Assembly: GCA_045603485.1 (NCBI GenBank)
Contig: JAZUMF010000105.1
Span: 1,903-65,902, forward strand
Source of the DNA: Kiritimatiellia bacterium
GTDB taxonomy: Bacteria; Verrucomicrobiota; Kiritimatiellia; RFP12; JAAYLN01
DNA length: 64,000 bases
Direction of reading: 5' to 3'
The notes below the pieces were generated by a model, which saw nothing but the letters and a program-made list of their open reading frames with translations, was not told the DNA's origin and ran no database searches. Below are positions 2,203-39,215 of the stretch, one piece after another (the stretch's first letter is position 1; every line of letters begins with the position of its first letter). Made by a program: the position numbers and the translations under genes.

Positions 2203-4608
2203 TCAGAGAGATGTTAGGGTGATGTTTTTTATGGTGAGATTGGATTTGCCATCGTAAATGATTGCAAATCGGAATGGTAGATTTGTTGTATGGGTAAAAT
2301 CGAGTGTTGCCGTTTCTAGGCCATTGGGGGAGGATTTGAATGGGGCATTGCCGTATTCGTTGCCTCCTGCGACGCCAACCTTTAGTTGGCAGCCATCGCC
2401 TCCTTGGGCTTTTACTTCAAGGCGGTATTTGCCTTGTGGAATTGGGAGATATGGCCCATGCAGCGCTTCTCCTTTGGGTGTGTGTGCTGTATTGAATTCA
2501 ACGCTTCCATCCTTGAGTACGCTTGTACCATTATGATACATATTTGCCGGGATTATCTCTATTGTTGAATTTGCTTTGAGGGGGTATTCTCCAGCGGAGA
2601 TCAGGGCATGGATTGGCGTTGATACTCCTTTTGGCAATGGTACAGATCCGCCTAGCGGCGGGTCGAATTGAGCCTCATGCCAGCCATTTTCTTTGTCTAG
2701 TATCAGATAGCGCATTCCTTGACGGGCTTGTGTCGGAGCTCGAAGCTTTAGGTTTATTTCGCCTTGCCGTGCCGTTTGAATTGAGCGTAAAACTTTACTG
2801 CTATCCCATTGGACTGATGCAGGATAATTTAGGTATGACAGCGGTTTGCTGTCGGCGTGAATGATATCTGTCTTTTTTTGCGGTAGGATTTCAAAGGCGG
2901 TAATCCCTTCACTTTGGGTTATTAGATTTAACCATGGGCTGGCGGCTAATTTTTTAAGTGCAACTCCTGCCGGAAATGGGGAGACTTTTGTGGGGTAGGG
3001 TTGTTCATGAAAGAGAATGTAGGTTACCCCAAACTTACGGAGTCTTGCTATTTGCTCATCTGTAAGTTCGCCTTCATTGAGGGAGGAGAGAGGTCCGAAC
3101 ACTTCGGGGTAGTAATCTTGCGGAACTGACGGTGAATAGCCGTTTATGAGGCGTAGGCGCGAGTTCATTGCGCCATGCTCGTAGACTGACGACCAGTGGG
3201 ATTCGCCGGGCCAAATTGGCAGGCAGATGGCTTTTGGGGATGCTGCCAGGGGTGCTTTTTCAGTTACAGCCTGATAGGCTTGGGCATAGTCTTTGATTTG
3301 GCATGCTCTTATGCGGAACCATGTCATATACTCAACTGTCATTACGAGTGCAATTATCGTTGCCGCATAGATAAAGATTTTTGACTTTACCGTGGCGTCA
3401 ATTGACTTTTTCCGTGCGAGTAATGAAGAGGTAATCGCGACGAGGGCTGCAATTACTGTTGGGAGGAGGCAATAGATTTTAGCGGCTTGTCTAATCATTG
3501 TGTACTTTGGAACGAGGCGTCGTGCGGCGCGTAGGGGTAGCGCGCACATTGGTCCGTCAACGCCTAATGCCAGAAGTATTACTCCGAGCGTCATGAGTCC
3601 AAAGAGGGTTAGTGCTAAATAGCGTTTCCATTCTTTTGTTAATTTGCCTAATGACGGGATAAATGCAATTGCAAGGAGAGCCAGCGCAAGAAATGAGATG
3701 CCTATGTAGTTGTGGCTGAATGCGCCTGAGAGATGTCGGCGTGAGAAGAGCCCTTGCTTTATCGGTGAGAAGAGGGCTATTTCCTGTAATGTGCGGCCAT
3801 TTGCCATATTCGAGGTTTCCAGATGGCTCGCCGAGAGTTGCGAGAGCGCGACGGCTGCAACTCCAAGGGCTGCGAGTGGGATAAGCGCTATGACGATTTT
3901 CTTTAACGGGGTTTCGTTTTGTTCTTTAAGTAGCCAAAAGCCTATCAGCGCAAATGGGGTGGCAAGCGCGGAAAAGTAAAAGACATGGAGGTCCGAGCAG
4001 TATGCGAAGAAGATGGATAGACCGGCAATTATGCCACCTTTTATTTTGCCGCTTCTTGCTATTTGATCCAGTCCGTAAAAGAGCCACGGGACGAGGCAAT
4101 AGGCAAAGCCTGTGGGGCTGCCGCTTATAATCGTTATCCAGCGGTATGGGAATGCCGAGAGCGCTACGGCTATCGCTGTTGAGATGATTTCGGAGTGTGT
4201 TAGCCGCCTGACTAGGAGATAAAGCCCTAGTAGGCACATCAGGTGTGAGAAAAGTGTTGCGAGATTCCAGCCGGCGGCATGGCCCCAAATTGGAGATGCC
4301 GCCGCGTAGACTAAGGAGAAGGGGATGTAGTAGGTGTCAAACTTGAACCTTTCCGCATCCCCCTTTGTATTGAATTCGTATACATTTGCAAAGGGGGGCG
4401 TTTTGCCCGCAATCATATCGCGGCATAGCCAAAAGTGATAAAGGAGCTGAATGTGGTCTCCAGGTACCATCGCCGTTATTGCAGGCTCGTCTGCGCCTCT
4501 CCACTCTGCGTATGGGATTGCCTTTGTGAAGTTAGCCGGTATGGGCCAAGTGATTGTCGCCCACACGAGTATGCCAAGAAGAGATGTTACGAGAAGACCT
4601 TTTTTCAT
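2203..4608 (-). CDS. Large polytopic membrane protein (YfhO/GT-C-like, tentative)
   Basis: 801 aa. The first ~430 aa contain about a dozen hydrophobic helices; the ~370-aa C-terminal domain looks soluble. The architecture resembles the YfhO family; no motif-level proof. Confidence 0.4.
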   Translation of the reverse strand: MKKGLLVTSLLGILVWATITWPIPANFTKAIPYAEWRGADEPAITAMVPGDHIQLLYHFWLCRDMIAGKTPPFANVYEFNTKGDAERFKFDTYYIPFSLVYAAASPIWGHAAGWNLATLFSHLMCLLGLYLLVRRLTHSEIISTAIAVALSAFPYRWITIISGSPTGFAYCLVPWLFYGLDQIARSGKIKGGIIAGLSIFFAYCSDLHVFYFSALATPFALIGFWLLKEQNETPLKKIVIALIPLAALGVAAVALSQLSASHLETSNMANGRTLQEIALFSPIKQGLFSRRHLSGAFSHNYIGISFLALALLAIAFIPSLGKLTKEWKRYLALTLFGLMTLGVILLALGVDGPMCALPLRAARRLVPKYTMIRQAAKIYCLLPTVIAALVAITSSLLARKKSIDATVKSKIFIYAATIIALVMTVEYMTWFRIRACQIKDYAQAYQAVTEKAPLAASPKAICLPIWPGESHWSSVYEHGAMNSRLRLINGYSPSVPQDYYPEVFGPLSSLNEGELTDEQIARLRKFGVTYILFHEQPYPTKVSPFPAGVALKKLAASPWLNLITQSEGITAFEILPQKKTDIIHADSKPLSYLNYPASVQWDSSKVLRSIQTARQGEINLKLRAPTQARQGMRYLILDKENGWHEAQFDPPLGGSVPLPKGVSTPIHALISAGEYPLKANSTIEIIPANMYHNGTSVLKDGSVEFNTAHTPKGEALHGPYLPIPQGKYRLEVKAQGGDGCQLKVGVAGGNEYGNAPFKSSPNGLETATLDFTHTTNLPFRFAIIYDGKSNLTIKNITLTSL

Positions 4609-4624
4609 ACCTACTTTGTTTTGC

Positions 4625-5128
4625 CTAGTCGTCTGACCGTGTTAGTGTGATGAGACGGCTGTCTGGATTGCCTTCCGGAATTGCGATGTTTATGTGGAGT
4701 GTGTCGGCAGGGAGGGCGCCTTCGGCACGGTCGGGCCATTCAATGCAGATCAAATCGCCTGATTGCAGATATTCATCGAACCCGAGGGCATCGAGGTCGG
4801 TCGCCGCTTTGAGCCTGTACAAGTCCATGTGGACCAGTCGGCCTCCGCCAGGGAGCGAATACTCTCCAACTAGGGTGAAGGTCGGGCTGGTGACTGGGCG
4901 TTTTACACCCAGTTCAGCCGCCAACGCCTGTGTGAATGTCGTTTTGCCGGCACCAAGGTCACCCTCTAGGGCAACGACAGTTGGAGTATTGCGAAGCATT
5001 TCAGCCATTTCTCTGGCAAAGGCCCGCATTGCGGCCAGATTTTCAATTTTGACGATTTTCTTCATTTGTCTTGTAGATGTATGGTCGCCACTTGTTAGAG
5101 TCTGAAACGACGCTACTTCTTTGGCCAA
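4625..5128 (-). CDS. tsaE: tRNA t6A37 biosynthesis ATPase TsaE (YjeE)
   Basis: 167 aa with a P-loop [28 protein letters not shown] and a IEWPDR-type C-terminus, all typical of TsaE. Confidence 0.8.
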
Positions 5129-6417
5129 AATTCGTCGGTGTATTTTGACGCAATACCGACTTCAAAGGGCTCAAAGCATTCCGCCAAAATCGACCAGCCG
5201 CGATCGAGGGCTTGCTCGAGCGGTATATTGACAGCCAAGTCCATCATTCCGGCTTCAAAGAGCTTGCCGTACTTAAGGAGTTTTTCATCCCACGCCGACA
5301 TGCGGAAGCCCATCGCCGCCTTTTCTTGCGTCTCCTTGAAGGATGAGTAGAGGCGAATCATGGCATCCATGATTGTGCGGTGATCTTTGCGTGTCTTGTT
5401 GTTGACTTGCTGCTTTAGACGCGAGAGTGAGCCGAATGGTTCAATTCTTCCGTTTTTGAGGTAGAACTGACCTTCTGTGATGTAGCCTGTGTTATCTGGT
5501 ACAGGGTGGGTGACATCGTCGCCCGGCATTGTTGTAGCCGCAAGGATGGTGATGGAGCCGGCACCCTCAAAGTCGACCGCCTTTTCGTAGCGTGACGCGA
5601 GCTGGCTGTAAAGGTCGCCGGGATATCCGCGGTTGGAGGGGATTTGCTCCATTGTGATGGCAATCTCTTTAAGTGCATCTGCAAATGAAGTCATATCGGT
5701 CAGGAGAACGAGTACGCGCTTGCCTTCAAGTGCAAATTGCTCTGCGACCGCAAGTGAAATATCAGGGACGAGAATGCACTCTACAATCGGGTCTGCCGCC
5801 GTGTGAACGAACATGACGGTACGGGAGAGGGCTCCCGACTTCTCAAGCGTATCGCGGAAGTAGAGGTAGTCGTCGTATTTAAGCCCCATGCCGCCTAAGA
5901 TGATGACATCAACCTCGGCCTGGAGGGCGATTCGGGCAAGAAGCTGATTGTAGGGTTCGCCTGCTCGTGCGAAGATGGGGAGCTTTTGCGATTCGACAAG
6001 GGTGTTGAAGACATCAATCATCGGAATGCCCGTGCGAACCATGTGGCTTGGAATAATGCGCTTTGCAGGGTTGACTGAGGGCGTTCCGATGGGAATCAAG
6101 CCATCTTCAAGGGCTGGGCCATTGTCGCGAGGGCGTGCGGCACCTGTATAGACGCGCCCCAGGAGCGCGTCGGAGAAGGGAACTTCCATCGGGTGACCGA
6201 GAAATCTCACGGACGCATCGGTTGCGATTCCGCGCGTTCCGGCAAAGACCTGAAGTGAAACTCTGTCTCCGTCAAGCTTGATTACCTGAGACAGAGAAGT
6301 GCCATTGCGCGAGGTGACTTCGGCAAGCTCGTGGTATGCGGCGCCTTCGGCACGAAGGTTGATGACCGAACCGGCAATATTATCAATGCGATGATATGTC
6401 TTATGCATGGCGTGCAT
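5113..6417 (-). CDS. atpB: V-type ATP synthase subunit B
   Basis: Has a non-catalytic nucleotide-binding fold and [17 protein letters not shown] motifs, and sits directly downstream of the A subunit. The true start is probably an internal Met (MHAMHK/MHKTYH, ~6408-6417) rather than the ORF-track start at 6465, which overlaps atpA. Confidence 0.85.
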
Positions 6418-8143
6418 TCTCCTCAAGAAGCTTTTCAATCTTTTCCTTAAAGGTCTTGCAGGCATCTGTATCAGGTGCCGTTTGGTGCCAATCCTTAAAG
6501 TTTTGTGTAATTGTCAGGAAGAAGCGACGGGCATCATCCTTACTGTCGAAATCAAAATCAGAGGCGATAATCTTTTCGAGCAGATCAAAGACTTCCCGTT
6601 GGCGAACGACCGGCATAGCCGAGTCCACCTCGTTGAATGAGTCCTGTTGCAGATATACGGCATCAAGGAGCTCCGACTTTAGGTAGACGAGGAAGTCCGC
6701 CATTGCGGTACCTTCTTCGCCAACGACCTTAGTCATCTGGAGAACTTCATTGCCGCGACGCAATATGGCGCGAAGTTTTTCTACGCGATCCTGCTCGACA
6801 ACGCTGGAATACTTGCTCCAGCTGTCAAGCGGGTCAATGGCTGGGTAGCGGCGAGCGTCGGAGCGGGCGCGTGAAAGACCGTGGAATGCACCGACTACCT
6901 TGAGGGTCGCTTGCGTGACAGGCTCGTCAAAGTTACCACCTGCAGGTGAAACGGTGCCGCCGATTGTTACGGAGCCAATCGAGCCGTCACGAAGTCTTAC
7001 GCGGCCGGCACGCTCGTAGAAGGCGGCAACGACGGATTCAAGATAGGCAGGGAATGCCTCTTCGCCTGGGATTTCCTCAAGTCGGCCTGACATTTCGCGA
7101 AGGGCTTGAGCCCAGCGTGAGGTCGAGTCAGCCAAAAGAAGGGCGTTGAGACCCATTTGGCGGTAGTAGGAAGCAATCGTGACCGCCGTGTAGACCGAAG
7201 CTTCTCGAGCTGCAACCGGCATTGATGATGTGTTGCAGATAATGACGGTACGATCCATCAGCGAGCGACCCGTGCGAGGATCCTTCATGGCTGGGAATTC
7301 GCGAAGAGTTTCAACGACCTCGCCGGCGCGCTCTCCGCAGGCGGCGATAATTACAACATCAACCTCTGCGTGGCGGCTTGTGACCTGTTGAAGAACCGTC
7401 TTGCCAGCACCGAAGGGGCCGGGAATGCAGTAGGTGCCGCCAAGTGCAACGGGGAAGAATGTGTCGATTGTACGCTGCTGGGTAATCATCGTCTCGGTAG
7501 GGCTGAGACGCTCCTCAAAGCAGCTGAGCGGTACCTTGACAGGCCAACGCTGAATAAGTGTAACCTCCTGCTCCAGGCCGGAATCATTAGCGAGAGTGGC
7601 AATCTTGTCGGTGACTTTATAGGTTCCCTTTGCGGCAATCTCGCGGACTGTCCATGCGCCATCAAGTCCAAACGGTGCCATGATTCGGTGAGCAAAGATA
7701 CCTTCCGGAACGGTTCCCAATGTGTCGCCGGCATAGACTTTGTCGCCGACCTTGACGGACGGGGTGAATTCCCATGAGCTGTCTCTGGGGATAGGCGGGA
7801 GATAGGTGCCGCTCTGCAAAAAGAAGCCACACTCCTCCGCTAGACGGGGAAGCGGATTCTGCAATCCGTCAAAGACCTGTCCGAGAAGACCGGGGCCGAG
7901 CTCGGCAGAGAGTAGGTCGCCCGAGAATTCAACGAGACCGCCGACGGCAAGGCCTGTGGTATCTTCAAAGACCTGCATGTCAGCGAGTGAGCCACGAATG
8001 CGGACGACTTCAGACATTAGGCGACGGGTTGTGCCATTATCGTCCAGAAGCGCATATCCGACCTCGTTTTGTGCGACAGCACCGGAAAACGCCACGGAAA
8101 TCATATTTCCGTTGACCATAGAAATTGTACCAGTTGTTTTCAT
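6401..8143 (-). CDS. atpA: V-type ATP synthase catalytic subunit A
   Basis: 580 aa with Walker [13 protein letters not shown] and the non-homologous insert typical of A subunits. Confidence 0.9.
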
Positions 8144-8652
8144 CGTTTAGTCAGAGCCTTAAAGGATTCAGCTCCTTTGGCGGCATCAGCCGCAAGAAGC
8201 TTTTCGTTGATTTGGATTTTGGCTGCAAAAGCCAGGATGACATTTTCCGAGAGTGGCTGAACACCCTGGAGGGAATCGAGAATAGTCCAGCGCAGGTGGG
8301 CTATAGCCCGTTCGCGCTGGAGCGGGTCGCTAAGTGCGAATGCGGCAGTAATTGCAGGAGCGATGGTGCCGTCGCATCCGGCTGTTTCAAGCCTGGGAGC
8401 CTTGGACGGCTGCTCTCCACGGCGGCGGGTACGCTCAATAGCGACCGCATTTCGGATCTGAGCATCTGCATCGCGCCATGCTCGAACGAATGGATGAGAG
8501 TCGTCGCAGTCATTAAGAATGGCGTTGACCGCACGAGCAATTGAGCCGGTAAGTTCAGAGTCGCAGGCAGCGCGGAAGCCTTCGAGCGTCATCTTCGCAC
8601 TTTGTCCCTCAAGGAGGAGGGGTAGTGAGGATATGAAGTAATCGAGGTTCAC
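8140..8652 (-). CDS. Hypothetical protein in the V-ATPase operon (between E and A; DUF2764-like position)
   Basis: 170 aa with no recognisable motif. Its position between E and A is where spirochaete and chlamydial V-ATPase operons carry a conserved hypothetical gene. Confidence 0.45.
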   Translation of the reverse strand: MNLDYFISSLPLLLEGQSAKMTLEGFRAACDSELTGSIARAVNAILNDCDDSHPFVRAWRDADAQIRNAVAIERTRRRGEQPSKAPRLETAGCDGTIAPAITAAFALSDPLQRERAIAHLRWTILDSLQGVQPLSENVILAFAAKIQINEKLLAADAAKGAESFKALTKR

Positions 8653-8679
8653 GATTGCGTTCCTAACTTAATGATTGAC

Positions 8680-9285
8680 TTATGCATCCTTGGCAAGGGC
8701 TGCAAGTTCGGGGCGAAGAAGCCGTGCCAAGGCGTCAGTCACGGCATCGGCGGTAAAGCATTGCTCAATGCGGCCGCCATCGGTGCGGATAACGAAACCG
8801 TTCGCGAAGGCGGGGCTGTTGATAACCTTGATTCCGTCAGCGGCGCTCTTTGCTTTGAGCTCATCAAGAAGCTTTGCCGCTAAATCTGCCGCGCTATTGC
8901 CAAGCTCAACCTCAATTGCCTTTTCACCCTTTGCCAAGTAGGTATCGATAGCCTTGGTAATCCATGCCTTGAGTGTTTCGGTATTGTTGAATTCAGCCTT
9001 AACACCATCCGCAAGGAAAGAGACGACAATCTTTTGGAGGTCTTGAGCGAGTTGCAGCTTGACATCACGGACCGCTTGCTTAACGGTAGCTTCAGCGCGG
9101 GATGAAAATGCGGCGGCATCACGCTTGGCCTCGGCACGAAGCTTCTCGGCTTCTTCCTCAGCCGCTTTGCGAATATTGGCTGCATCCTTTTGCGCAGATT
9201 CAATGATAGACTTAGCTTCAGCGTTGGCCTTTTCAAGACCTTCGCTTTTGATTCTTTCTAATAGTGCTTGTAATTCGTCAGCCAT
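8680..9285 (-). CDS. atpE: V-type ATP synthase subunit E
   Basis: 201 aa, highly charged and alanine-rich N-terminal coiled coil (MADELQALLERIKSEGLEKANAEAK...) with a globular C-terminus. Position and composition are typical of subunit E. Confidence 0.65.
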   Translation of the reverse strand: MADELQALLERIKSEGLEKANAEAKSIIESAQKDAANIRKAAEEEAEKLRAEAKRDAAAFSSRAEATVKQAVRDVKLQLAQDLQKIVVSFLADGVKAEFNNTETLKAWITKAIDTYLAKGEKAIEVELGNSAADLAAKLLDELKAKSAADGIKVINSPAFANGFVIRTDGGRIEQCFTADAVTDALARLLRPELAALAKDA

Positions 9286-9669: not shown

Positions 9670-10389
9670 ATGGTATCAGAGCTTTTTGGAAATGTTATTA
9701 AGGAGTTGCTGCATTTTTGGTGGTTTTTTGTAATTGCAATTGGTCTTAAGATTTTGATTTGTATCGCAAAAAGTCCATCCGGCAAGGGCTCTCGCGGAGA
9801 GAAAATAGCGCCATTAGCAATCTTTCAAAGTCTTGCGTCTCTTAAGGGGGCTCGCGGAGAGAGAATTGTTTCAAGGCGGTTGCGTGATGGTCTGCCGGAG
9901 GAATATAAGATTTTAAATGACATTTACCTTCCGCTTTTAGATGGAACTACAACACAGATTGATCATATCGTTGTATCGCAATATGGTATCTTTGTCGTAG
10001 AAACAAAGGCTTATAGCGGATGGATTTTCGGGGATGGGAAAAGTCCCTGCTGGACTCAGACGATATACAACAAGAAAAGTAAATTTCAAAATCCAATCAG
10101 GCAAAACTATAGGCACATTTGCGCATTGGCTGAGACTCTCGGTATCGATAAATCATATTTTATCAGCGTTGTCGTCTTTACCGGTGACTGTGAATTTAAG
10201 GGTGAGATGCCTAAGGGTGTCATATATTCCCAAGGTGCAGTAGATTACATCCGTCAGTTTACCGCTCCGTTGATTCTTGTTAGGCAGCTTGATGAAATTG
10301 TTTCTGCGATTGAGGAATGGCAAGCTTCAATCAGCGAGGAGCGAAAAGCCAAGCATGTCGAGAATTTGAAAAAACGCCATAACATTTAG
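9670..10389 (+). CDS. NERD (nuclease-related domain) protein with N-terminal TM helix
   Basis: GARGERIVSRRL...YKILNDIYLP....IDHIVVSQYGIFVVETKAYSGWIFG matches the NERD core. The N-terminal ~35 aa are hydrophobic. Sampled GC is ~37%. An internal near-duplicate KGSRGEKI/KGARGERI is present. Confidence 0.7.
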   Translation: MVSELFGNVIKELLHFWWFFVIAIGLKILICIAKSPSGKGSRGEKIAPLAIFQSLASLKGARGERIVSRRLRDGLPEEYKILNDIYLPLLDGTTTQIDHIVVSQYGIFVVETKAYSGWIFGDGKSPCWTQTIYNKKSKFQNPIRQNYRHICALAETLGIDKSYFISVVVFTGDCEFKGEMPKGVIYSQGAVDYIRQFTAPLILVRQLDEIVSAIEEWQASISEERKAKHVENLKKRHNI

Positions 10390-10496
10390 GTTAAATCTTG
10401 CCAATGACCTAAGGGCGACTTTAGGATGACTCAGAGGGGTGGCGGTGCTTCAGGCGCAAACGCTTTTAGGCGAGGGGCTTCTTCTGCTGAAACTCT

Positions 10497-10730
10497 TCAA
10501 TCCGAAAAGTGAAAACCGTCAAACCCGTTTTTGAACATAGCAATCAAGCTTTTTATGACTGCTAAAAAGAGGTAGAAGCCGGCGATTGATTCAAATATAA
10601 ACGGTATCCAAGAAGGTGTTGGGTCATTGAGACAAAACAACGAATAAAGGGCGATCGTGCCACTTATAATCGCATACTCCCACGCGCCTTGGCATGTTTT
10701 TGGAATAAGTTTGAATCTTCTTTTCTTCAT
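10497..10730 (-). CDS. Small two-helix membrane protein (hypothetical)
   Basis: 77 aa with two hydrophobic segments, convergent with the NERD gene. ORF only; no homology recognised. Confidence 0.3.
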   Translation of the reverse strand: MKKRRFKLIPKTCQGAWEYAIISGTIALYSLFCLNDPTPSWIPFIFESIAGFYLFLAVIKSLIAMFKNGFDGFHFSD

Positions 10731-10956
10731 GAAGTAATAATATAAAATTTAAAGAGGAAAAGCAAATGGAATAATGGAGAGTGAAGCCATCATCTCGGCA
10801 AAAAGTGATTTGCCTTTTCATCGCTTGATAAATCCAACATTCTAGACATCTTATTAACGGAAATTTTTTAGTTCTACGACACTGAAAACTATTACGCACT
10901 TACGGCAATCTATACCGAGCGGTATTTATAATGACCGAATAGATAAATATCGGTAT

Positions 10957-11064
10957 CTTACCTTTTACCTCTTACTTCTTACCTTTTACCTTTTACCTTT
11001 CTTTAGGTTTTAGGTAATAGGTAATAGGTAATAGGTTCCGACAATTCGCAAGGCGAATTGGCGG
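10957..11064. repeat. Hairpin element copy A: (CTTACCT-like heptads) - loop - (AGGTAAT)3 - GGTTCCGACAATTCGCAAGGCGAATTGGCGG
   Basis: Direct reading. The left arm is rich in TTACC and the right arm is its complement, GGTAA. The terminal CAATTCGC/GCGAATTG forms an 8-bp stem. Confidence 0.8.
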
Positions 11065-11421
11065 GACACTATGGATACTGCAACACATTTCACTTTTTAC
11101 CTCAATAGGATAAAATTTATGATAGGCGAACTTGAAATCTGCCATTTTCTACACCCATAGATAACACGGCTTTTTTATCATCGCGAACATACATGCAGGA
11201 AGTATGGATTCGATGCCGGATGATATGCTTTCGGCGTTTCCTGCAAGAATCGCTTTTCTCTGTGCGACCAGGGAAGAATCAATTCGCCTTATCGGAATAC
11301 CGCATGCGGTAAACTTATATCCCTTTTGTGAATTTTTCATCAACAACGCCGCAAAATCCAAAAATTCCAATTGCGTCTATCACGTAACAAAAACGAGTTC
11401 GAGACATGAAAACGTGTACGC

Positions 11422-11778
11422 TTATTTCGGATTCAGCTTTTTGAGCGATGCGACCAGGAGACGAATCAGCTCTTCGCAGTCGGTGTAGAGGGACTGATAC
11501 GAATCGCCATCAGGGATGAAACCGGTTTCGTGCAGCAATTCAAGCCAATACAACGTTTCACCGGCTTCTTTGAGTGCGATGGTCTGTTTGGAAATGAAGT
11601 CGTTTCTGGATTGCGCGTACTTGGCTTCCGCCAGATTAGCCCCTATCGACGTGCCGCACCGAAGGATCTGCTTTGACATCGTCGATTCGCGTTTTCCGCG
11701 CAGATATTTATGGAGATTGACGATACGGATGGCAAACGCCTTGGCCTTTGTCAGCATCACCGGGTCGGACATACACAT
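11422..11778 (-). CDS. Four-helix-bundle protein (TIGR02436-type; Avd / 23S-IVS protein family)
   Basis: 118 aa. ...SIGANLAEAKYAQSRNDFISKQTIALKEAGETLYWLELL... matches the conserved core of four-helix-bundle (bAvd-like) proteins. Confidence 0.75.
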   Translation of the reverse strand: MCMSDPVMLTKAKAFAIRIVNLHKYLRGKRESTMSKQILRCGTSIGANLAEAKYAQSRNDFISKQTIALKEAGETLYWLELLHETGFIPDGDSYQSLYTDCEELIRLLVASLKKLNPK

Positions 11779-12107
11779 CTCCTTTCTTAGGAAAACGACA
11801 AACTCCGCACTTCTTACCTTTTACCTCTTACTTCTTACCTTTGTTTAGGTTTTAGGTTAGAGGTAATAGGTAATAGGTAATAGGTTCCGACAATTCGCGC
11901 TTTCCGCGCAGATATTTATGGAGATTGACGATACGGATGGCAAACGTCTTGGCCTTTGTCAGCATCACCGAGTCGGACATACACATCTTCTTTCACAAGA
12001 AAACGACAAACTCCGCACTTCTTACCTTTTACCTCTTACTTCTTACTTCTTACCTTTGTTTAGGTTTTAGGTTAGAGGTAATAGGTAATAGGTAATAGGT
12101 TCCGACA
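11685..12107. repeat. Tandem direct duplication, 208 bp + 215 bp (~93% identity)
   Basis: Units 11685-11892 and 11893-12107 both begin ATTCGCG(T/C)TTTCCGCGCAGATATTTATGGAG. Each contains the 5' 31 codons of the four-helix-bundle gene plus one hairpin element. Unit 2 has an extra TTCTTAC heptad. Confidence 0.85.
11811..11898. repeat. Hairpin element copy B
   Basis: cttcttaccttttacctcttacttcttacctttgtttaggttttaggttagaggtaataggtaataggtaataggttccgacaattcgc. Confidence 0.8.
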
Positions 12108-12122
12108 ATTCGCAAGGCGAAT
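12018..12122. repeat. Hairpin element copy C, abutting the tRNA-Ser 3' end
   Basis: Same element with one extra heptad. It ends in the CAATTCGC-aagg-GCGAATTG hairpin immediately 3' of the tRNA CCA. Confidence 0.8.
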
Positions 12123-12214
12123 TGGCGGAGGGGGTGGGATTCGAACCCACGATGGCCGTAAGACCATGCCTGATTTCGAGTCAGGTACGTTCAACCAGGC
12201 TCCGCCACCCCTCC
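12123..12214 (-). tRNA. tRNA-Ser (anticodon CGA), CCA encoded
   Basis: The reverse complement gives GGAGGGG acceptor pairing with CCCCTCC. The anticodon stem-loop is CCTGA-CTCGAAA-TCAGG with U33 and A37. There is a long variable arm and a GGTTCGAATCC T-loop. Total length is 92 nt. Confidence 0.85.
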
Positions 12215-14383: not shown

Positions 14384-15232
14384 TTAGATGATTCGAGTGA
14401 GCATTTGCTCCGCCAAATCGGAGAGTGCTGCCGTTGCTTGAGAGCCTTTAATGGTCGAAAGCGCCGCGACTGCTTCTGTTGTGAATTGCTTGGCTTTTTC
14501 ACGGGCTTCTTCAACTGTCCAAAGGCGGAGGCATGAGGGCTCTTCGTTTTCTTCATCGGCGTCGAGGATGTCGTCGATTATCTGGAAGGCTACACCTAGC
14601 GCTTCGCCATAGTGACCTAAAGCTTCAATCTCATCGTCGGTTCCGCCGCCGGCGATTGCGCCGAGCAGCATTGAGGCTTTGAAGAGGTCCGCCGTTTTGT
14701 GGAGTTGAATATAGCTTAGCCGCTCTGCATCAAGCGGTGTATTGGCTATGTCTTCAACCTGTCCGCCAACTACACCTGCCGGGCCTGCCGCCTTAGCCAA
14801 AACTCTTACAAGGTTGTTTGTCCGTTCAGGAGAGAGTTTTGTCGGCTGCGATATGACATCAAATGCGTGAGCCTGTAATGCGTCACCAGCCAGTATCGCT
14901 AGCGCTTCACCGTATTTGATATGGACGGTCGGGCTGCCTCTGCGGAGGGCGCTGTCATCCATCGACGGGAGGTCGTCATGGATGAGGGTGTAGGAGTGCA
15001 GATATTCAATCGCCGCCGCAGCTTGGAGCGCCGCTTCGGGATCGCCGTCGTCGCTTGCCGCTGCCTCTGAGGCTGTCAGCACTAATAACGGGCGTATGCG
15101 CTTGCCACCTGTGGATACGGCATAACGCATTGCTTCTGCAAGTGCTTTGGGAACATTTTCGGACGGCAACAACCGCAAAACGACCTCTTGGGCTCGTTCG
15201 CGCTGCAGGCCAAGATAGTCTTTTGTCGCCAT
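14384..15232 (-). CDS. ispA: Polyprenyl diphosphate synthase (FPP/GGPP synthase, IspA family)
   Basis: First DDxxD LIHDDLPSMDD and second FQIIDDILD motifs. The start is placed at internal MATKDYL to avoid a 77-nt overlap with the upstream gene. Confidence 0.8.
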   Translation of the reverse strand: MATKDYLGLQRERAQEVVLRLLPSENVPKALAEAMRYAVSTGGKRIRPLLVLTASEAAASDDGDPEAALQAAAAIEYLHSYTLIHDDLPSMDDSALRRGSPTVHIKYGEALAILAGDALQAHAFDVISQPTKLSPERTNNLVRVLAKAAGPAGVVGGQVEDIANTPLDAERLSYIQLHKTADLFKASMLLGAIAGGGTDDEIEALGHYGEALGVAFQIIDDILDADEENEEPSCLRLWTVEEAREKAKQFTTEAVAALSTIKGSQATAALSDLAEQMLTRII

Positions 15233-15236
15233 TTTT

Positions 15237-16130
15237 TTACTTGACCGTGTAGCGTGTTGCTTTGCCCAAGGCTTTCCAGAGAGACTCTTGGTCGGTCGCG
15301 GCGATAATCGCATTGCGGTTTTGGACCTTCATGAAGGACTCTGTAAGTCCGGCGATGAGGCGCAGATAAAACGCGCTTACCGCTGTTGGAATAGTAAAGA
15401 AGCAAATGATGTTAGCGGTATGGTCGTTGTCGAACTTGATGCCCTTTTTGCTGGTGCCGAGTGCGAGCGTTAAGCCGCCGCCTTCAACACCGCGCACATG
15501 GGGGAACGCCAAGCCGTTTTCCATACCTGTCGAGAGGATGTTCTCGCGCTCTATGGCTGCAGTGACAAGCTTTGCCGCATCATCGACGAAGCGTGCGTCC
15601 TGCATAATGGTCGCAAGCTCGATAATGGCGTCGTCGCGTTTTGTCGCCTTGAGCTCAGGAATCATAAGGGACTGGGCGGAGAAGCGGGCAATGCCGATTT
15701 TGCGCGGCTCGGAGCGCGTCTGATTTTCACCGACCCACCGTGCAGAGTCGGAGGTTTCATAGAGGATTCGGGCGCAACTCGGGCAGGTTTGGATCTGATT
15801 GGACTGCAGGTCGTGCGCCTGACGGACGGTTTGCACCAAACCGAGTGGAAGGCGCATACCGCAAATTGCACAGGAGCCGTTGTGCATCGGTGCCATAACG
15901 ATGTGGTCTTTCTTCAAAAGACGAAGGACGAAATCTTTTGTCGATTGTGGAAGACCTGAAGCTAAATCTTCGATATTTTTACGGAGACGCTCAAGGTGCG
16001 AGCCATCGCCTGTCGTTTTGTGTTCGTCAAGAATCAATACCAATTCCTGAAGCTGTAATAGATGATTTACTAAACTCTGCATAGTGCTTAATGTTTTACA
16101 TTTATTTTGAAATTTTGTCAAGATTTTCAT
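15237..16130 (-). CDS. Fusion protein: coiled-coil + C4 zinc-ribbon (COG1579-like) N-terminus with PTS EIIA-2 (EIIA-Ntr/PtsN-like) C-terminus
   Basis: The N-terminus has CAICGMRL...CPSCARILY, two CxxC pairs after a coiled coil. The C-terminal ~150 aa are ...GLAFPHVRG...IICFFTIP..., matching the EIIA fructose/nitrogen family with its conserved His. Confidence 0.6.
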   Translation of the reverse strand: MKILTKFQNKCKTLSTMQSLVNHLLQLQELVLILDEHKTTGDGSHLERLRKNIEDLASGLPQSTKDFVLRLLKKDHIVMAPMHNGSCAICGMRLPLGLVQTVRQAHDLQSNQIQTCPSCARILYETSDSARWVGENQTRSEPRKIGIARFSAQSLMIPELKATKRDDAIIELATIMQDARFVDDAAKLVTAAIERENILSTGMENGLAFPHVRGVEGGGLTLALGTSKKGIKFDNDHTANIICFFTIPTAVSAFYLRLIAGLTESFMKVQNRNAIIAATDQESLWKALGKATRYTVK

Positions 16131-18160: not shown

Positions 18161-18195
18161 ACTTTCTTTTGCCTTATAAGATTGGGAATTGTTTT

Positions 18196-19233
18196 ATGTG
18201 CGTTCTTTGTGGATATATCAGCAAAGAGAAAAATGTTGCGCCAAAACTCCTTGACTATGGTGAAAGCATAGAAGGGCTTTGGAGCGGTTTTTATACTGGC
18301 GTAGGAGTACTGGGCGACGATGGAGTTATCCGTCATCGTAAAACCACCGGCTGCTCATCAGTTTGGCGTGAGCGGTTTTCGACTGAAGATTTGCCCGGCA
18401 AAACGGGCTTTTTTCATAGCCGTACAAATAGCGGCGGCGACACAAGATATGCCCATCCATTTGTATCATGCGATGGTACCACAATGCTTGTCGGGCAAGG
18501 GCATGCAGGATGCTTTGCCAAATATAATGACAAGATTGTTGATATAGCCAATAATCTTCTTGATGAAGGGGTTGTCTTTTCAAGTGCAGACCCTGACCTT
18601 GAACGCAAAAAGTATCAAGTTCTGAAAGATGGCTCACAGGTTCATGTGTCGGATATTGTTACCGAGTATGCAGCCTCGCTATATCGAAAATGCGGAGATC
18701 CTTTGGAGGCTGTCCGTAAAACGGCAACCGATATTCTCGAAGAGGCGATTTCTCTCTTTATTTTCCGTGATAAGCCAGGACATATATATGTTTCAAATAT
18801 GAATGCACGCCTGGCAATCCGCCGCATTCCTGATGGAATCTTTATGACAACCAGCCTGTTGCTCTTTGATAAAGTCTATGGCGAGTCGTTGGAGATGCCG
18901 TCAAATGCTGTTGCAGATATTTCATTGGATTCTGCAACCTTTAAGCCGCTAGTTGATAACCTAACTGTGGGAGCATTAGGGAATCCTAAACAGTTGTATC
19001 AAGATGTCTATGACTTTATAAAGTCAAATGACGGAGTTTCTTTGCCGCAAATAATGGATTCCGTTGTTAAAAAGCATTGTGCCGCAGACGATGTAGAGCC
19101 ACTTTTCTTGCAAGGACTACCGCATCAAATTGTTGAGCAAATGTATGCCGAAGGCATAATCAATTATGAAACAAAAAAGGTCCCTGGGCCATCGTGTTGT
19201 AGCTATCCTGGAGCCAGAACATTGTTCTATTAA
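18196..19233 (+). CDS. Class II (Ntn) glutamine amidotransferase-domain protein
   Basis: The internal start MCVLCGY places the Cys nucleophile directly after Met, as in GATase-2/Ntn hydrolases. The ORF-track start at 18169 is 9 codons upstream. Confidence 0.5.
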   Translation: MCVLCGYISKEKNVAPKLLDYGESIEGLWSGFYTGVGVLGDDGVIRHRKTTGCSSVWRERFSTEDLPGKTGFFHSRTNSGGDTRYAHPFVSCDGTTMLVGQGHAGCFAKYNDKIVDIANNLLDEGVVFSSADPDLERKKYQVLKDGSQVHVSDIVTEYAASLYRKCGDPLEAVRKTATDILEEAISLFIFRDKPGHIYVSNMNARLAIRRIPDGIFMTTSLLLFDKVYGESLEMPSNAVADISLDSATFKPLVDNLTVGALGNPKQLYQDVYDFIKSNDGVSLPQIMDSVVKKHCAADDVEPLFLQGLPHQIVEQMYAEGIINYETKKVPGPSCCSYPGARTLFY

Positions 19234-19738: not shown

Positions 19739-20455
19739 CAAGGAAAACCAAGAGTCAAGAATATAGTCGAAAGCTACTACCATATAGTAAGCAGATGTAT
19801 CTTCAGTCAGTTTTTGCTGGGGGATACGGATAAAGACATGTTCGTCAAGATGATGCGTACAATAGCCTATTTCAGTGGAATAGATATACTCAACTATTGC
19901 GTGATGGACAACCACTTTCATCTCCTCGTTCATGTACCTGAGCCATCAAAGCCTACAGAAGCACTATTACTAAAACGCATATCCGCACTCTACGGTAGAC
20001 TCCACGCAGCTGACCTTAAGAGCCGCTGGTATGAACTAAAGAAGCAAAACCGACCAGATATTGTCGAAGAAGAGCAGGCGGCATTCATTCGCCGCATGGG
20101 AGATATAACACCATTTATGCAGTGCCTAAAGCAACGCTACTCAGCCTGGTACCGCGCAAGACACGACTACAAACAAGGCACAATGTGGGAAGGTCGTTTC
20201 CGCAGCACACTAGTAGAAGGCACCTCAGAAACCCTCTCCTCAATCTCAGCCTACATCGACCTAAATCCCGTCCGCGCAGGCATAGTAGACGACCCCAAAG
20301 ACTACAAATGGGCAGGCTTTGCCAATGCGCTGAAAGGCGATAGCAAATCAATGGAAGGCATAGCAAAGATGTATGACAAAACAGCTAGTGACACATCCTT
20401 TGCAGATTTGGCGAAAGAATATCGTCTAAAGAAGTCGGAGGCCAAGCGGTCTTAG
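19739..20455 (+). pseudogene. RAYT/IS200-like transposase, degenerate copy (ATG replaced by CAA; 3'-truncated at 20430)
   Basis: It aligns codon-for-codon with the intact copy, but the start is CAA GGA instead of ATG AGA. After ...EYRLK the frame runs into the inverted 3' flank of copy 2, giving KSEAKRS*. Confidence 0.6.
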
Positions 20456-20485: not shown

Positions 20486-21343
20486 TCACAGAACGACATG
20501 GCTACGATCCGACTTTGAGCCTATGATGGCGCCGTGTGTGAAGTGGCGTATTTTGCAGCGAAGTATTACCGATAACGGTAACTCGCCTTTTTCATCTATT
20601 ACTTCTTGTACCTTTTCTGGCTCTATTGCATCGGAGCCGCGTACATAGAGTTTTAGACGATATTCTTTTGCCAAATCTGCAAAGGATGTGTCTTTAGCTG
20701 TTTTGTCATACATCTTTGCTATGCCTTCCATTGATTTGCTATCGCCTTTCAGCGCATTGGCAAAGCCTGCCCATTTGTAGTCTTTGGGGTCATCTACTAT
20801 GCCTGCGCGTACGGGATTTAGGTCGATGTAGGCTGAGATTGAGGAGAGTGTTTCTGAGGTGCCTTCTACTAGGGTGCTACGGAAGCGCCCTTCCCACATT
20901 GTACCTTGCTTGTAGTCGTGTCTTGCGCGGTACCAGGCTGAGTAGCGTTGCTTTAGGCACTGCATAAATGGTGTTATATCTCCCATGCGGCGAATGAATG
21001 CGGCCTGTTCTTCTTCGACAATATCGGGGCGATTTTGCTTCTTTAGCTCATACCAGCGGCTTTTAAGGTCAGCTGCGTGGAGTCTTCCATAGAGTGCCGA
21101 TATGCGTTTTAGTAATAGTGCCTCTGTGGGCTTTGATGGCTCTGGTACATGAACGAGGAGATGGAAGTGGTTATCCATTACGCAATAGTTGAGTATATCT
21201 ATTCCGCTGAAATATGCTATTGTACGCATCATCTTGACGAACATCTCTTTATCTGTATCCCCCAGCAAAAACTGACTGAAGATACATCTGCTTACTATAT
21301 GGTAGTAGCTTTCGCCTGCGTTCTTGACTCTTGGTTTTCTCAT
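20486..21343 (-). CDS. IS200/IS605-like Y1 (HUH) transposase, RAYT-like, with C-terminal extension
   Basis: 285 aa with HUH motif HFHLLVH at ~aa 60 and Tyr-containing YSAWYRARHDY at ~aa 135, then a ~135-aa C-terminal extension. Confidence 0.7.
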   Translation of the reverse strand: MRKPRVKNAGESYYHIVSRCIFSQFLLGDTDKEMFVKMMRTIAYFSGIDILNYCVMDNHFHLLVHVPEPSKPTEALLLKRISALYGRLHAADLKSRWYELKKQNRPDIVEEEQAAFIRRMGDITPFMQCLKQRYSAWYRARHDYKQGTMWEGRFRSTLVEGTSETLSSISAYIDLNPVRAGIVDDPKDYKWAGFANALKGDSKSMEGIAKMYDKTAKDTSFADLAKEYRLKLYVRGSDAIEPEKVQEVIDEKGELPLSVILRCKIRHFTHGAIIGSKSDRSHVVL

Positions 21344-32596: not shown

Positions 32597-33441
32597 ATGG
32601 CGCGGGCTTCCGTTATAATAGGATTATGCTCGTTGCTTGCGGCGACCGCATTGGCAAGTGGATTACCTCCATTCTCCGATTACGAAGTCATCCTCAATCG
32701 CAAGCCGTTTGGAGATCCGAAGATTGTCGCTCAATCGGCTGGTGTGGACAAGGCTACTGAGGCTGCAATAGCAGAGGAAAATAGAGCCAAGCAAACCTTG
32801 GCTAGACAGTTGCATCTCGTCGCAGTCAACATAATGCCAAGCGGAGCCATAGTCGTAGGCCTCGTCGATAAAACGACCAATCCATCGCGCAGTATGCTCC
32901 TTGCCCCCGGTGAATCGGAGGCGGGCTACAAGGTTGTCGAAGCAAATGTCAATGAAGAAACCGCCAAGATTGAAAAGGACGGTACGATAATCACCCTAAA
33001 GCTCGGCAAAGGGCTTGTCGAAGAACAGGCCACGGCTGAAGAAGGTGCCGAGGGTCAGCCCGGCACACCCGTAGAGACTCCCCTGGCGCAGCCGCCAGTC
33101 AATCCGCCCCCTCGCGCAGACGGAGCACAGCCGCAGGTGCCGCACAGGTCTCTTGTGAGACCAGGGTTTCGAAACTTCCGTGGTGGCGCCGGCTTCCGAC
33201 AAAGGAAGATGGAGCAGAATCGGCTTGAAGAGCAGCAGCGCGAGGCTACCGAACAAAAGCTTGCCCATGCGGCAACGGTGGCTGCCGAGAAAAAAATGAA
33301 TGAGAAGCTTAATGCCCGTGAGCGGGAAATGAATCTTCGTCTTATCCGTCAAGGTCAGCAACCGCTTTCAGAGATAGAGCTGACACCCGAAGAAGAACGA
33401 ACTCTAATTGACGAAGGTGTAATACCAGAGCAATCCCAACA

Positions 33442-33445
<4 letters not shown>
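32597..33445 (+). CDS. Secreted hypothetical protein (N-terminal beta-rich domain, Pro-rich linker, C-terminal charged coiled coil; GspC/PilP-like?)
   Basis: Signal peptide, low-complexity PGTPVETPLAQPPVNPPP, and an E/Q/R-rich C-terminus. Any domain guess is weak. Confidence 0.35.
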
Positions 33446-37776
<4,331 letters not shown>

Positions 37777-37780
<4 letters not shown>

Positions 37781-38481
37781 TTAATCGCATCGACAATTTC
37801 AGCCGGCGAATCTGAATTTCTAAGAAGCTCAAGGAGAGTCTTATCGTTCAGAAGCATACAGAGACGCGCCAATGTGCGGAGGTGTACCTTATCCTCGTGA
37901 CAAACCAAGGTGAAGAATAAATCGGTAGGCTTGCCGTCGGGCGCGCCGAAGTGAATTGGGGTTGCAGTGCGACCGAGGAGAAGAAACGATTCGCTTGCGA
38001 GATAGGGATCGTGACAGCGGGGATGAAGAATGGCAAATCCGCCGGCCATAGCTGTTGAGCAAAGCTCCTCGCGCCGTCTTAAGCTTTCAAGCAAATCCTT
38101 CGGGTCGTAAAGCAACCCCAGTTCGTCCGCCATCCTGACCGACTCCGATATCACCGATGCCTTTGTGCGCGCGTTAAAATTCAGGTTTATGCGCTCTATT
38201 GAAAGAAGCGATGTCAAAGACAAGGCAACTCCGTCCTTGCGATGGTCGTGAGCGGCATTCTTTTCATAATCGCCCAGCTTGCGCTCATTCATTGCAAGAA
38301 TATGGCGCGACGCCCACGCGTCCAAATCATCTTCCCTAAAGCTCGGTCGGGAAATATCGCCGATGTAGGGCAGCTCCCCTTCTCTTGCATACGCAATTAT
38401 ATCACGACTCGGCATATGCAGATAAGCCGCGGCATCATCCAAATTTAATTGCCTTATAGCCATCAGTACCAGACCCTCCAA
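37777..38481 (-). CDS. Fusion: HTH_17 (excisionase/MerR-like) DNA-binding domain + PTS EIIA-2 (EIIA-Ntr-like) domain
   Basis: The N-terminus is LNLDDAAAYLHMPSRDIIAYAREGELPYIGDISRPSFREDDLDAW, an Xis-family HTH pattern. The C-terminus is ...GGFAILHPRCH...DLFFTLVCHEDKVHLRTLARL (the EIIA-2 fold with its His). Confidence 0.6.
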
Positions 38482-39215
38482 AGGGTTAGACCTTGAGGAG
38501 GTGCAGATGGAACACGCGCTGTGCGACTAGCGCAGGAATCAAGCAATTCGGTAATTCGCTCAGGTCTCTCCTGACCATGCCCAATGCGAATAAGCATCCC
38601 TACCATGCTGCGTACCTGTTTATAGAGAAAGCCGTTGCCACGGACGCGCAGAGTGATAAAACTGCCGCGTTTTGAAATTTCAAAATCGGTGATAGTCCTG
38701 ACCGTTGAATCAATCTCCCGTTGTGGATTTGCCATAAATGGACGAAAGTCATGCTCCCCGACAAACCTTGCTGCCCCCTCCCGCATCAAATCAAGATTAA
38801 GAGGTCGATGGACCTGCACGGCATAAAGTCGCTCTTGCGGCGCCAGGATTTTACCATTGAAGATGCAATAACGGTACTCCTTGGAGTGGGCCGTCCGTCT
38901 TGCATGAAAGTTATCGCCGACCTTCTTTACCGAAGTAATTCTGATGTCTTGCGGAAGCCTGGCATTGAGCGCAAAGAGAATTGAACGCACAGTCATTCGT
39001 GTATCAAGGTCGAAATGTGCGACTTGCCCACGCGCATGCACCCCGCGGTCTGTACGACCACTTCCGTGAAGCTTAACGCGCACACCCGCCATTGCCTCTA
39101 TGGCAAGCTCTATTACCTCTTGCACCGTCGTGTGACCAGGTTGGACCTGCCATCCTGCATAGTTTGTGCCGTCGTAGGCAATGGTTAGACAAAAACGCAT
39201 AACGCTTACTCGCAA
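38463..39215 (-). CDS. truA: tRNA pseudouridine(38-40) synthase
   Basis: LTIAYDGTNYAGWQVQPG and GSGRTDRGVHARGQVAHFD with the catalytic Asp. Confidence 0.85.
   Translation of the reverse strand: MRVSVMRFCLTIAYDGTNYAGWQVQPGHTTVQEVIELAIEAMAGVRVKLHGSGRTDRGVHARGQVAHFDLDTRMTVRSILFALNARLPQDIRITSVKKVGDNFHARRTAHSKEYRYCIFNGKILAPQERLYAVQVHRPLNLDLMREGAARFVGEHDFRPFMANPQREIDSTVRTITDFEISKRGSFITLRVRGNGFLYKQVRSMVGMLIRIGHGQERPERITELLDSCASRTARVPSAPPQGLTLWRVWY

Follow-up and report, generated by a model that had tools for sequence, protein, structure and literature searches.

PtsN-type EIIA domains fused to a zinc ribbon and to a helix-turn-helix in Kiritimatiellia: candidate outputs of a transporter-less phosphotransferase system

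Two EIIA fusion genes in a core chromosomal window

The stretch of DNA considered here comes from a Kiritimatiellia bacterium (contig JAZUMF010000105.1) and is 64,000 nucleotides (64 kb) long; this whole stretch is called the window below, and homologs of its products were collected by protein, genome and structure searches. It carries two genes whose products both end in an enzyme IIA (EIIA) domain of the phosphoenolpyruvate (PEP)-dependent phosphotransferase system (PTS). The product of open reading frame 1 (ORF1) has a C4 zinc ribbon in front of the EIIA domain (zinc ribbon-EIIA), and the product of ORF2 has a helix-turn-helix (HTH) in the same position (HTH-EIIA). Both reading frames lie on the minus strand, at the coordinates given by an earlier reading of the letters alone (the original prediction), and their features are listed in Table 1. 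The window is a piece of core chromosome with the ribosomal S10, spc and alpha operons and the genes of EF-G, SecY, Adk and RpoA, and it also contains genes for the A and B subunits of a V-type ATPase, carboxylases, glycoside hydrolases, tgt and truA. Motif scans and Pfam scans of the window ORFs found no gene for enzyme I (EI), HPr, HPr kinase (HPrK), EIIB or EIIC, and no rpoN (the gene of sigma-54).

The two genes probably start somewhat downstream of the first codon of the longest reading frame. For ORF1 the true start is likely Met17 at 16082 (MQSLVNHL...), giving a product of 281 aa, because MQSL... opens most homologs and the preceding 16 codons are AT-rich and unconserved; that is to say, His211 counted on the 297-aa ORF is His195 counted from Met17. 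For ORF2 the true start is likely the ATG at 38463, which overlaps the stop codon of truA (cTGATGg) and gives 228 aa, because it is the start that the homologs use, and His153 counted on the 234-aa ORF is then His147.

Table 1. Positions of the two EIIA fusion genes, of their domains and key codons, and of the adjoining genes, counted along the window
Feature	Position	Strand	Remarks
ORF1, zinc ribbon-EIIA protein	15237..16130	-	297 aa as longest ORF
ORF1 N-terminal helical module	15909..16082	-	three helices, residues 2-58 from Met17; conserved LxQLQEL motif; AlphaFold2 (AF2) model
ORF1 C4 zinc ribbon, Zn_ribbon_9	15756..15896	-	Pfam, family profile, alignment
ORF1 zinc-ribbon Cys codons	15870-15872, 15861-15863, 15783-15785, 15774-15776	-	
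ORF1 PtsN-type EIIA domain (PF00359)	15240..15695	-	signature RE...ST...G(L)AFPHVRG
ORF1 phospho-acceptor His codon, LAFPHVRG motif	15498-15500	-	His211 of the ORF, His195 from Met17
ORF2, HTH-EIIA protein	37777..38481	-	234 aa from TTG
ORF2 HTH_17 domain (excisionase/MerR-like winged HTH)	38305..38448	-	Pfam
ORF2 PtsN-type EIIA domain	37780..38208	-	Pfam, PDB profile
ORF2 His codon, AILHPR motif	38023-38025	-	His153 of the ORF, His147 from ATG
Polyprenyl synthase	14384..15232	-	ATG 4 nt past ORF1 stop; co-oriented
truA (tRNA pseudouridine synthase)	38463..39215	-	directly upstream of ORF2, overlapping

Domains, conservation and spread of the two proteins

The Pfam model PTS_EIIA_2 is matched by residues 157-288 of ORF1 (E=7.4e-20) and by residues 92-234 of ORF2 (E=8e-25), and HTH_17 (PF12728) is matched by residues 12-59 of ORF2 with E=2e-6 and 28.2 bits, over the gathering cut-off of 27 bits. 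The original prediction was thus right in its EIIA-2 calls and in reading an HTH in 37777-38481, and these two domains are all that a Pfam scan of ORF2 returns. The N-terminus of the ORF2-family profile also gives a weak match (E=0.04), consistent with HTH_17, to the DNA-binding domain of RacA (5i41), which is a MerR-like winged HTH. The assignment of both EIIA domains to the Ntr (PtsN) type, proposed at the same time, holds as well, since PtsN structures are the best matches of both. With the ORF1-family profile the PDB matches are PtsN 2a0j (1e-15), 3urr and 4gqx (2e-15) and 1a6j (2e-11), followed by mannitol EIIA 1a3a (1e-9); the ORF1 EIIA domain as a single-sequence query gave no match in the PDB, so the family profile is required. 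The ORF2 EIIA domain reaches E. coli PtsN 1a6j both as a single sequence (2e-12) and as a family profile (2e-18), with mannitol EIIA at 9e-4. The EIIA domains of ORF1 and ORF2 are 26% identical to each other, which points to old paralogs and not to a recent duplication.

The phosphorylatable His, which had been noticed in both proteins from the letters alone, is kept throughout the two families. In an 86-sequence alignment of the ORF1 family the EIIA signature R179-E180...T185...A192-x-P194-H195-V196-R197 is invariant, the phospho-acceptor His included (86/86), and in the profile comparison with the PDB this His is aligned to the phospho-His motif of PtsN. In the ORF2 family, His147 is invariant in 24/24 sequences spanning 41-78% identity, together with R131, E132, T137 and the core HTH positions.

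In front of its EIIA domain, ORF1 matches Zn_ribbon_9 (PF02591) at residues 86-123 with E=3e-6 and 27.6-28.8 bits, slightly under the gathering cut-off of 29.1 bits. The same model is matched by 32/32 diverse zinc ribbon-EIIA members, with a best E of 4e-13, and the zinc-ribbon assignment is solid for the family as a whole. All four Cys (C71, C74, C100 and C103 from Met17) and R105 are invariant in the 86-sequence alignment, the spacing being CXXC-X25-CXXC in ORF1 and X20 in most homologs. A 124-position profile of the N-terminal part of the family matches CT398 (4ilo; E=2.9e-14, chain residues 162-244), HP0958/FlgZ (3na7; E=2e-12, chain residues 149-249) and MSMEG_4306 (5y05; E=1.9e-5), and the core aligned with CT398/HP0958 reads VVP..N..CSGC....L.......VR......C..C.RILY.

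The AF2 model of ORF1 was built with 86 diverse sequences, after one built with 21 close homologs had reached a predicted local distance difference test (pLDDT) of 53 and been discarded; it has a pLDDT of 90.9 and a predicted template-modelling score (pTM) of 0.86, the latter predicting a defined mutual arrangement of the two domains. In this model, helices at residues 2-24, 30-42 and 46-58 form a helical part of about 58 residues, the ribbon consists of strands 63-67 and 106-109 and a helix at 80-91, and after a linker the EIIA domain runs from 130 to 281. Foldseek comparison of the model with the PDB ranked PtsN at the top, with TM-scores of 0.79-0.84 normalised to the target, and also matched CT398 (4ilo) with E=1.3e-3 over 101 columns; no PDB chain spanned both halves of ORF1, the top query-normalised TM-score being 0.46.

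From these comparisons, the N-terminal module of ORF1 corresponds to the end of the coiled coil and the C4 ribbon in COG1579 proteins, its ribbon and adjoining helices being homologous to those of FlgZ/HP0958 (3na7), CT398/CdsZ (4ilo), MSMEG_4306 (5y05) and COG1579/DUF164 proteins in general. The original prediction of a COG1579-like coiled coil plus C4 ribbon therefore stands for the ribbon but fails for the length of the coil, which is about 58 residues as against a hairpin of about 150. The COG1579 proteins are about 250 aa long and end in the ribbon, which follows an extended antiparallel coiled coil of about 150 residues, and they have no further domain (PMC3372290), whereas in ORF1 the coil is short and the ribbon is N-terminal to an attached EIIA domain. 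In a 2011 census of 349 DUF164 proteins the domain was always C-terminal, and all but three of the proteins were without another defined domain (PMC3372290); the forms described there do not include a ribbon placed N-terminal to an EIIA domain.

With ORF1 as the query of a protein search, 3498 proteins passed E<=1e-3; the top 120 of these are all 275-305 aa long, and most of them have both Pfam domains (the domains of listed homologs were taken from precomputed annotation). An exhaustive HMMER search over 1.84 billion representatives at 50% identity gave 1843 matches, most of them through EIIA alone and 41 of them below 1e-30, and about 35 full-length zinc ribbon-EIIA clusters at 50% identity were obtained, which are 271-296 aa long and extend down to 29% identity. 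When the most divergent member, from a metagenome-assembled genome (MAG) of Thermodesulfobacteriota (P0291), was used as the query, Zn_ribbon_9 and PTS_EIIA_2 were present in 120/120 proteins returned. A scan with a 9-sequence alignment, taking one genome per species, showed that at least 73 species carry the gene. Among the carriers listed, the labels are mostly Kiritimatiellia, Kiritimatiellales, Pontiellaceae, 'Lentisphaerae' or 'Verrucomicrobiota', about seven records are MAGs of Thermodesulfobacteriota or delta-proteobacteria, and the one non-MAG record among the carriers listed is Pontiellaceae bacterium B12219, presumably an isolate; the closest among the matches listed is 77% identical and comes from a yak-rumen Kiritimatiellae MAG. 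A 51%-identical gene was also seen on a 5-kb contig in a record titled Clostridium sp. CAG:138 (L027), which is probably a mis-binned Kiritimatiellia contig and not a true Firmicutes occurrence. The database label of the zinc ribbon-EIIA proteins is only "PTS sugar transporter subunit IIA", and a literature search found no paper on the fusion; it is a conserved, lineage-restricted family, which appears not to have been described so far.

The search with ORF2 returned 256 proteins, the best 120 of which have 211-271 aa and 41-98% identity, most of them with HTH_17 and PTS_EIIA_2. The HTH-EIIA architecture is not new: it is already annotated, with its function uncharacterised. Both fusions are fixed architectures of conserved families and not chance events. 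The original prediction named as a refutation the case that such architectures are widespread and annotated with a known role; they are indeed widespread within the lineage, but neither protein has been characterised.

Other proteins of the lineage also connect EIIA domains to outputs. The closest EIIA relatives outside the ORF1 family are proteins of 600-900 aa with a Na_H_Exchanger domain and two PTS_EIIA_2 domains, and other close relatives are shorter tandem-EIIA proteins with no further Pfam domain (the exchanger-EIIA-EIIA and tandem-EIIA relatives recorded are P0299, P0306, P0319, P0327, P0297, P0298, P0304, P0308, P0318 and P0322). Moreover, a Pontiellaceae MAG (L066) encodes a divergent second HTH_17-EIIA protein (2944-3600, plus strand, 218 aa, GVGVPHVR motif, HTH_17 E=1e-17), whose gene ends 4 nt before a Na+/H+ exchanger-CBS gene (3604-5331, plus strand) and lies 6.4 kb from the zinc ribbon-EIIA gene of the same genome; the HTH_17-EIIA protein and the exchanger-CBS protein are a candidate regulator-target pair. 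Since the nearest EIIA relatives are exchangers with fused EIIA, the linking of EIIA(Ntr) to outputs looks like a theme of the lineage. This agrees with the proposal of Spring et al. in 2016 that the 'rudimentary phosphotransferase system' of Kiritimatiella glycovorans serves as a global regulatory cascade, in which PEP and pyruvate are sensed and the signal is passed on to 'homeostasis of pH and sodium' (PMC5148204). E. coli PtsN regulates the YcgO antiporter in trans (PMC11808508). In the exchanger fusions and in PtsN-YcgO, an EIIA(Ntr)-like domain is linked to its output or controls it, as proposed below for ORF1 and ORF2; however, the output of the exchanger fusions is a membrane transporter and not a nucleic-acid- or protein-binding module.

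Genes around the two fusions

The polyprenyl synthase gene beyond ORF1 is probably co-transcribed with it, and the order continues with an RlmD-like methyltransferase, an Exo_endo_phos protein and tRNA-Ser. The pairing of ORF1 with polyprenyl synthase is present at 70% identity and gone at about 65%, and when the eight nearest neighbours were clustered over 52 species-level loci of the ORF1 family, no family occurred in more than four loci; on these grounds both the polyprenyl synthase and the RlmD-like methyltransferase were rejected as operon partners of ORF1. The region beside tRNA-Ser (12123-12214, minus strand; window 9670-12214) is strain-variable and looks like an integration hot spot. 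In the window it encodes a protein with a NERD domain (9670-10389) and a four-helix-bundle protein of the 23S_rRNA_IVP type (11422-11778). At the equivalent site, locus L001 (7665-14445) has a phage integrase together with about eight genes that lack annotation, and L002 (7683-10980) has 23S_rRNA_IVP, SdpI and GH28 genes. A possible third EIIA in the window ('IGIPH' motif, 11291-11305) was rejected as a spurious 94-aa ORF.

Around ORF2 there is a co-oriented run of an unknown ORF, a phosphoribosyltransferase-domain (HPRT-like) gene, truA, ORF2 and a gene for a BadF-type ATPase/SIS fusion. The adjacency of truA and ORF2 is present at 61% identity, and nothing is common at 44%; truA and the BadF-type ATPase/SIS (MurQ-like) fusion were rejected as operon partners of ORF2 beyond close relatives. 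The latter protein (35948-37780, minus strand, 610 aa), whose gene has a 4-nt overlap with the ORF2 stop, joins a BcrAD_BadFG-type ATPase (sugar-kinase-like) to a SIS (MurQ/GKRP-like) part and could be a fused kinase/etherase for amino-sugar recycling. Scans for sigma-70- and sigma-54-type promoters gave no excess over shuffled sequence.

Some other features of the window were recorded in passing. Two convergent ORFs encode IS200-like Y1 transposases (Y1_Tnp; 19814-20455, plus strand, and 20486-21343, minus strand), and a Y1_Tnp gene is also found near truA and the HTH-EIIA gene in two related loci (L084 and L085). No Pfam match was obtained for the ORFs at 2203-4608 (minus), 18169-19233 (plus), 39754-41118 (minus), 32597-33445 (plus) and 8140-9285 (minus), the lengths recorded for Pfam-less ORFs being 801, 354, 454, 282, 170 and 201 aa. 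Those of 170 aa and 201 aa adjoin the V-type ATPase A and B genes on their transcriptionally upstream side and may be divergent V-ATPase subunits.

A proposed transporter-less regulatory PTS and the competing explanations

PtsN is a single free protein that acts in trans on many targets, with its gene in the proteobacterial rpoN operon, and PtsN-type regulators are known almost entirely from Proteobacteria. Both EIIA domains described here have the fold, the active-site signature and the phospho-acceptor His in common with PtsN (1a6j, 2a0j, 3urr, 4gqx), which is the top sequence-profile match of both and the top structural match of the ORF1 model, and like PtsN both fusions are presumed to be regulatory and not parts of a transport system. 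The canonical EIIA-Ntr/PtsN is stand-alone, as the original prediction said, with about 150-165 aa, whereas both proteins here carry an extra N-terminal module; the PtsN gene lies in the rpoN operon of Proteobacteria, whereas the fusion genes are not rpoN-linked; and both fusions are far below the NCBIfam PtsN equivalog cut-offs. The zinc ribbon-EIIA protein is best classed within PtsN-type regulation.

The original prediction could not place these fusions in described systems, and this claim went too far, since a protein with an HTH and a PTS IIA domain is annotated in Chlamydia, MtlR is a classical case of PTS-controlled regulation, and a regulatory PTS has been proposed in Kiritimatiella. 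Cpn0061 (ptsN_2) of C. pneumoniae carries the annotation 'PTS IIA protein + HTH DNA-binding domain' (PMC5723314); by this annotation it shares the two-part architecture of ORF2, and it belongs to another lineage of the Planctomycetes-Verrucomicrobia-Chlamydiae (PVC) group with a transporter-less PTS. A literature search found no functional study on the chlamydial ptsN genes. MtlR, which the PTS controls, combines two HTH, two PTS regulation domains (PRDs), an EIIB-like domain and an EIIA-like domain with His599 (PMC8560693). The MtlR/LicR/ManR-type activators of Firmicutes, whose activity depends on phosphorylation by the PTS, resemble ORF2 in joining DNA binding to a domain like the EIIA of the Mtl/Fru family in which a His is conserved (PMC8560693), but they are about 650-700 aa long and contain two HTH and two PRDs besides an EIIB(Gat)-like domain, whereas ORF2 has no PRD and no EIIB, an HTH_17 and an Ntr-type EIIA, and with 228 aa is too short for PRDs.

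It is moderately likely that ORF1 and ORF2 are terminal phospho-acceptors of a transporter-less regulatory PTS, in which the EIIA domain is covalently joined to the module that it controls. The phosphate would pass from PEP to EI, from EI to HPr/NPr and from there to the EIIA domain of ORF1 or ORF2, and each EIIA domain would be hard-wired to its own output, whereas the proteobacterial PtsN acts in trans on separate targets. ORF2 would then be a one-component-like transcription factor, in which the phosphorylation state of His147 may alter the DNA binding of HTH_17 or the oligomerisation of the protein. ORF1 would be a 'mini-FlgZ' fused to PtsN, in which the phosphorylation state of His195 may switch the binding of a ribbon ligand on or off, in one direction or the other; the likeliest candidates for this ligand are the sigma-54/RNA polymerase complex and a transcript, and the switch would couple the PEP/pyruvate (carbon or energy) state of the cell to gene expression. 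The phosphorylation-controlled binding of DNA or RNA that the original prediction put forward is plausible. The signature RE..ST..G.A.PH.R, common to PtsN, together with the invariant His, favours the phospho-acceptor reading. Furthermore, the lack of a conserved operon partner (at most 4/52 loci) fits a global regulator, and strongly conserved sequences whose genes keep no fixed position are more in line with global than with locus-specific regulators.

The choice of ligand follows what has been reported for the homologs of the ribbon. HP0958/FlgZ binds and stabilises RpoN and binds FliH, its zinc-ribbon Cys are needed for RpoN accumulation, and its ribbon binds flaA mRNA (PMC5947703, PMC3372290). 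CT398 is found in complexes with RpoN and core RNA polymerase (PMC5947703, PMC3372290); it binds RpoN by the coiled coil alone, and FliH and CdsL by the coil plus the ribbon (PMC5947703).

Several observations weigh against this scheme. The original prediction had proposed to look for HPr, EI and HPrK genes, and nothing convincing was found in the window or, by motif and tblastn searches, in about 1.2 Mb of related loci, where EI, HPr, HPrK and rpoN are all without linkage to the family; the 'HPrK' matches of these searches were rejected as generic Walker A ATPases. The relay that would feed the EIIA domains is hence postulated from published work on relatives, and EI and HPr would presumably be encoded elsewhere in the host genome. 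In three related loci rpoN does lie on the same strand, 8-9.5 kb upstream of the zinc ribbon-EIIA gene (L028:608-2059, L035:83-1249 and L038 around 564), which means that sigma-54 exists in some family-bearing genomes (at least three). However, an OEP/HlyD/AcrB (resistance-nodulation-division) efflux operon and a DNA_alkylation repair gene lie between them, and operon linkage was rejected in favour of clade synteny. The long RpoN-binding coil of CT398 is mostly missing from ORF1, and its loss weakens the sigma-54 link, since in CT398 the coil alone binds RpoN (PMC5947703); the LxQLQEL motif of ORF1 matches the CT398 N-terminus with 1.6 bits, which is not significant. In P0255, a distant member of the zinc ribbon-EIIA family, the active-site His is replaced by Phe (AFPFARS), so that phosphorylation is not obligatory in every family member, and P0255 may be a phosphorylation-independent derivative. 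Finally, neither protein scores over the curated cut-off of any NCBIfam model: the PtsN equivalog model TIGR01419 (cut-off 138.7 bits) gives 29.2 bits with ORF1 and 52 bits with ORF2, and NF008145 (cut-off 221 bits) gives 48.6 bits with ORF2.

Some of these points give room to the idea that the EIIA domains serve a sensory or structural purpose independent of phosphorylation, binding a ligand or a partner protein without any PTS relay, and that the His is kept for a reason other than phosphotransfer. Such a role would explain a window and linked loci without relay genes, a family member without the His and scores under the PtsN equivalog cut-offs, and the EIIA_2 fold is also found in non-PTS settings, namely the cytoplasmic domains of anion exchangers (AE2 and Band 3), which Foldseek matched with the ORF1 model. 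It is nevertheless thought quite unlikely, because the whole PtsN active-site signature is kept and not the His alone, because the His is invariant in the 86 and 24 aligned sequences, and because EI and HPr without PTS transporters are documented in the PVC relatives Chlamydiales and Planctomycetes (PMC2405797; PMC13104625), besides the regulatory PTS proposed in Kiritimatiella. The other way in which the covalent switch could be wrong is that the N-terminal modules are passive and serve docking, oligomerisation or localisation, while the EIIA domain still acts in trans like PtsN; the zinc ribbon and hairpin might, for instance, only dimerise ORF1 or anchor it to a complex. Protein-protein contacts are commonly made by coiled coils and zinc ribbons (PMC5947703), MtlR is held at the permease by its EII domains (PMC8560693), PtsN acts in trans on many proteins, for example GlmS, YcgO and SsrB, and the lack of a conserved neighbour is equally compatible with such an arrangement. 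Set against this are the ribbon core conserved with CT398/HP0958, which argues that a specific ligand has been retained and not a generic dimerisation surface, the high pTM, which predicts the fixed intramolecular arrangement typical of a regulated module, and HTH_17, which is a DNA-binding fold; passive modules are thus considered rather unlikely.

The automatic annotation would make both proteins ordinary sugar-PTS EIIA subunits, and the source labels do read 'PTS sugar transporter subunit IIA' and 'mannitol/fructose-specific IIA'. The NCBIfam fruA subfamily-domain model likewise gives ORF1 57 bits, more than the 29 bits of the PtsN model, though both are far under their cut-offs. But neither the Pfam-scanned window ORFs nor the homolog contexts with Pfam calls contain EIIB or EIIC, the profile and fold comparisons rank PtsN above mannitol/fructose EIIA, both proteins have N-terminal modules that are not of a transport kind, and PTS permeases are absent from the PVC relatives (PMC2405797), so that this explanation is very improbable. 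That the fusions are artefacts of mis-assembly, of a frameshift or of an over-long ORF call has practically no probability left. The starts of ORF1 and ORF2 are probably over-called, by 16 codons and 6 codons, respectively, but the same two-domain proteins with conserved length are found in hundreds of independent assemblies from at least 73 species, which already refutes an artefact; the domain junction is continuous and conserved in the alignments, and the single-chain AF2 model is predicted with confidence.

The hard-wired switch in ORF1 can be carried one step further. Taken as a 'Rosetta-stone' fusion, ORF1 might indicate that PtsN-type EIIA proteins and FlgZ/CT398 act together, with the state of the PTS gating the availability of sigma-54/RNA polymerase or the fate of mRNA through the ribbon; this extension is doubtful and, as it stands, improbable. 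The genetic link of ptsN and rpoN has long been noted, but to our knowledge its mechanism has never been explained. If the fusion has this meaning, it would provide a physical explanation of that link, and PtsN and FlgZ/CT398 might also contact each other where they are separate proteins, as in Chlamydia and further bacteria. Should the fusion do no more than tether the protein, it would be a modest finding, one more entry in the list of domain architectures.

In summary, PtsN-type domains are joined in this lineage to ion exchangers, to an HTH and to a FlgZ/CT398-like ribbon, and the zinc-ribbon fusion provides a concrete, testable hypothesis that joins PTS-Ntr signalling to sigma-54 or to RNA. 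Since the outputs are fused to EIIA, each of them can be read from the protein sequence, and the targets of a transporter-less PTS would become directly testable in the PVC group, including Chlamydia.

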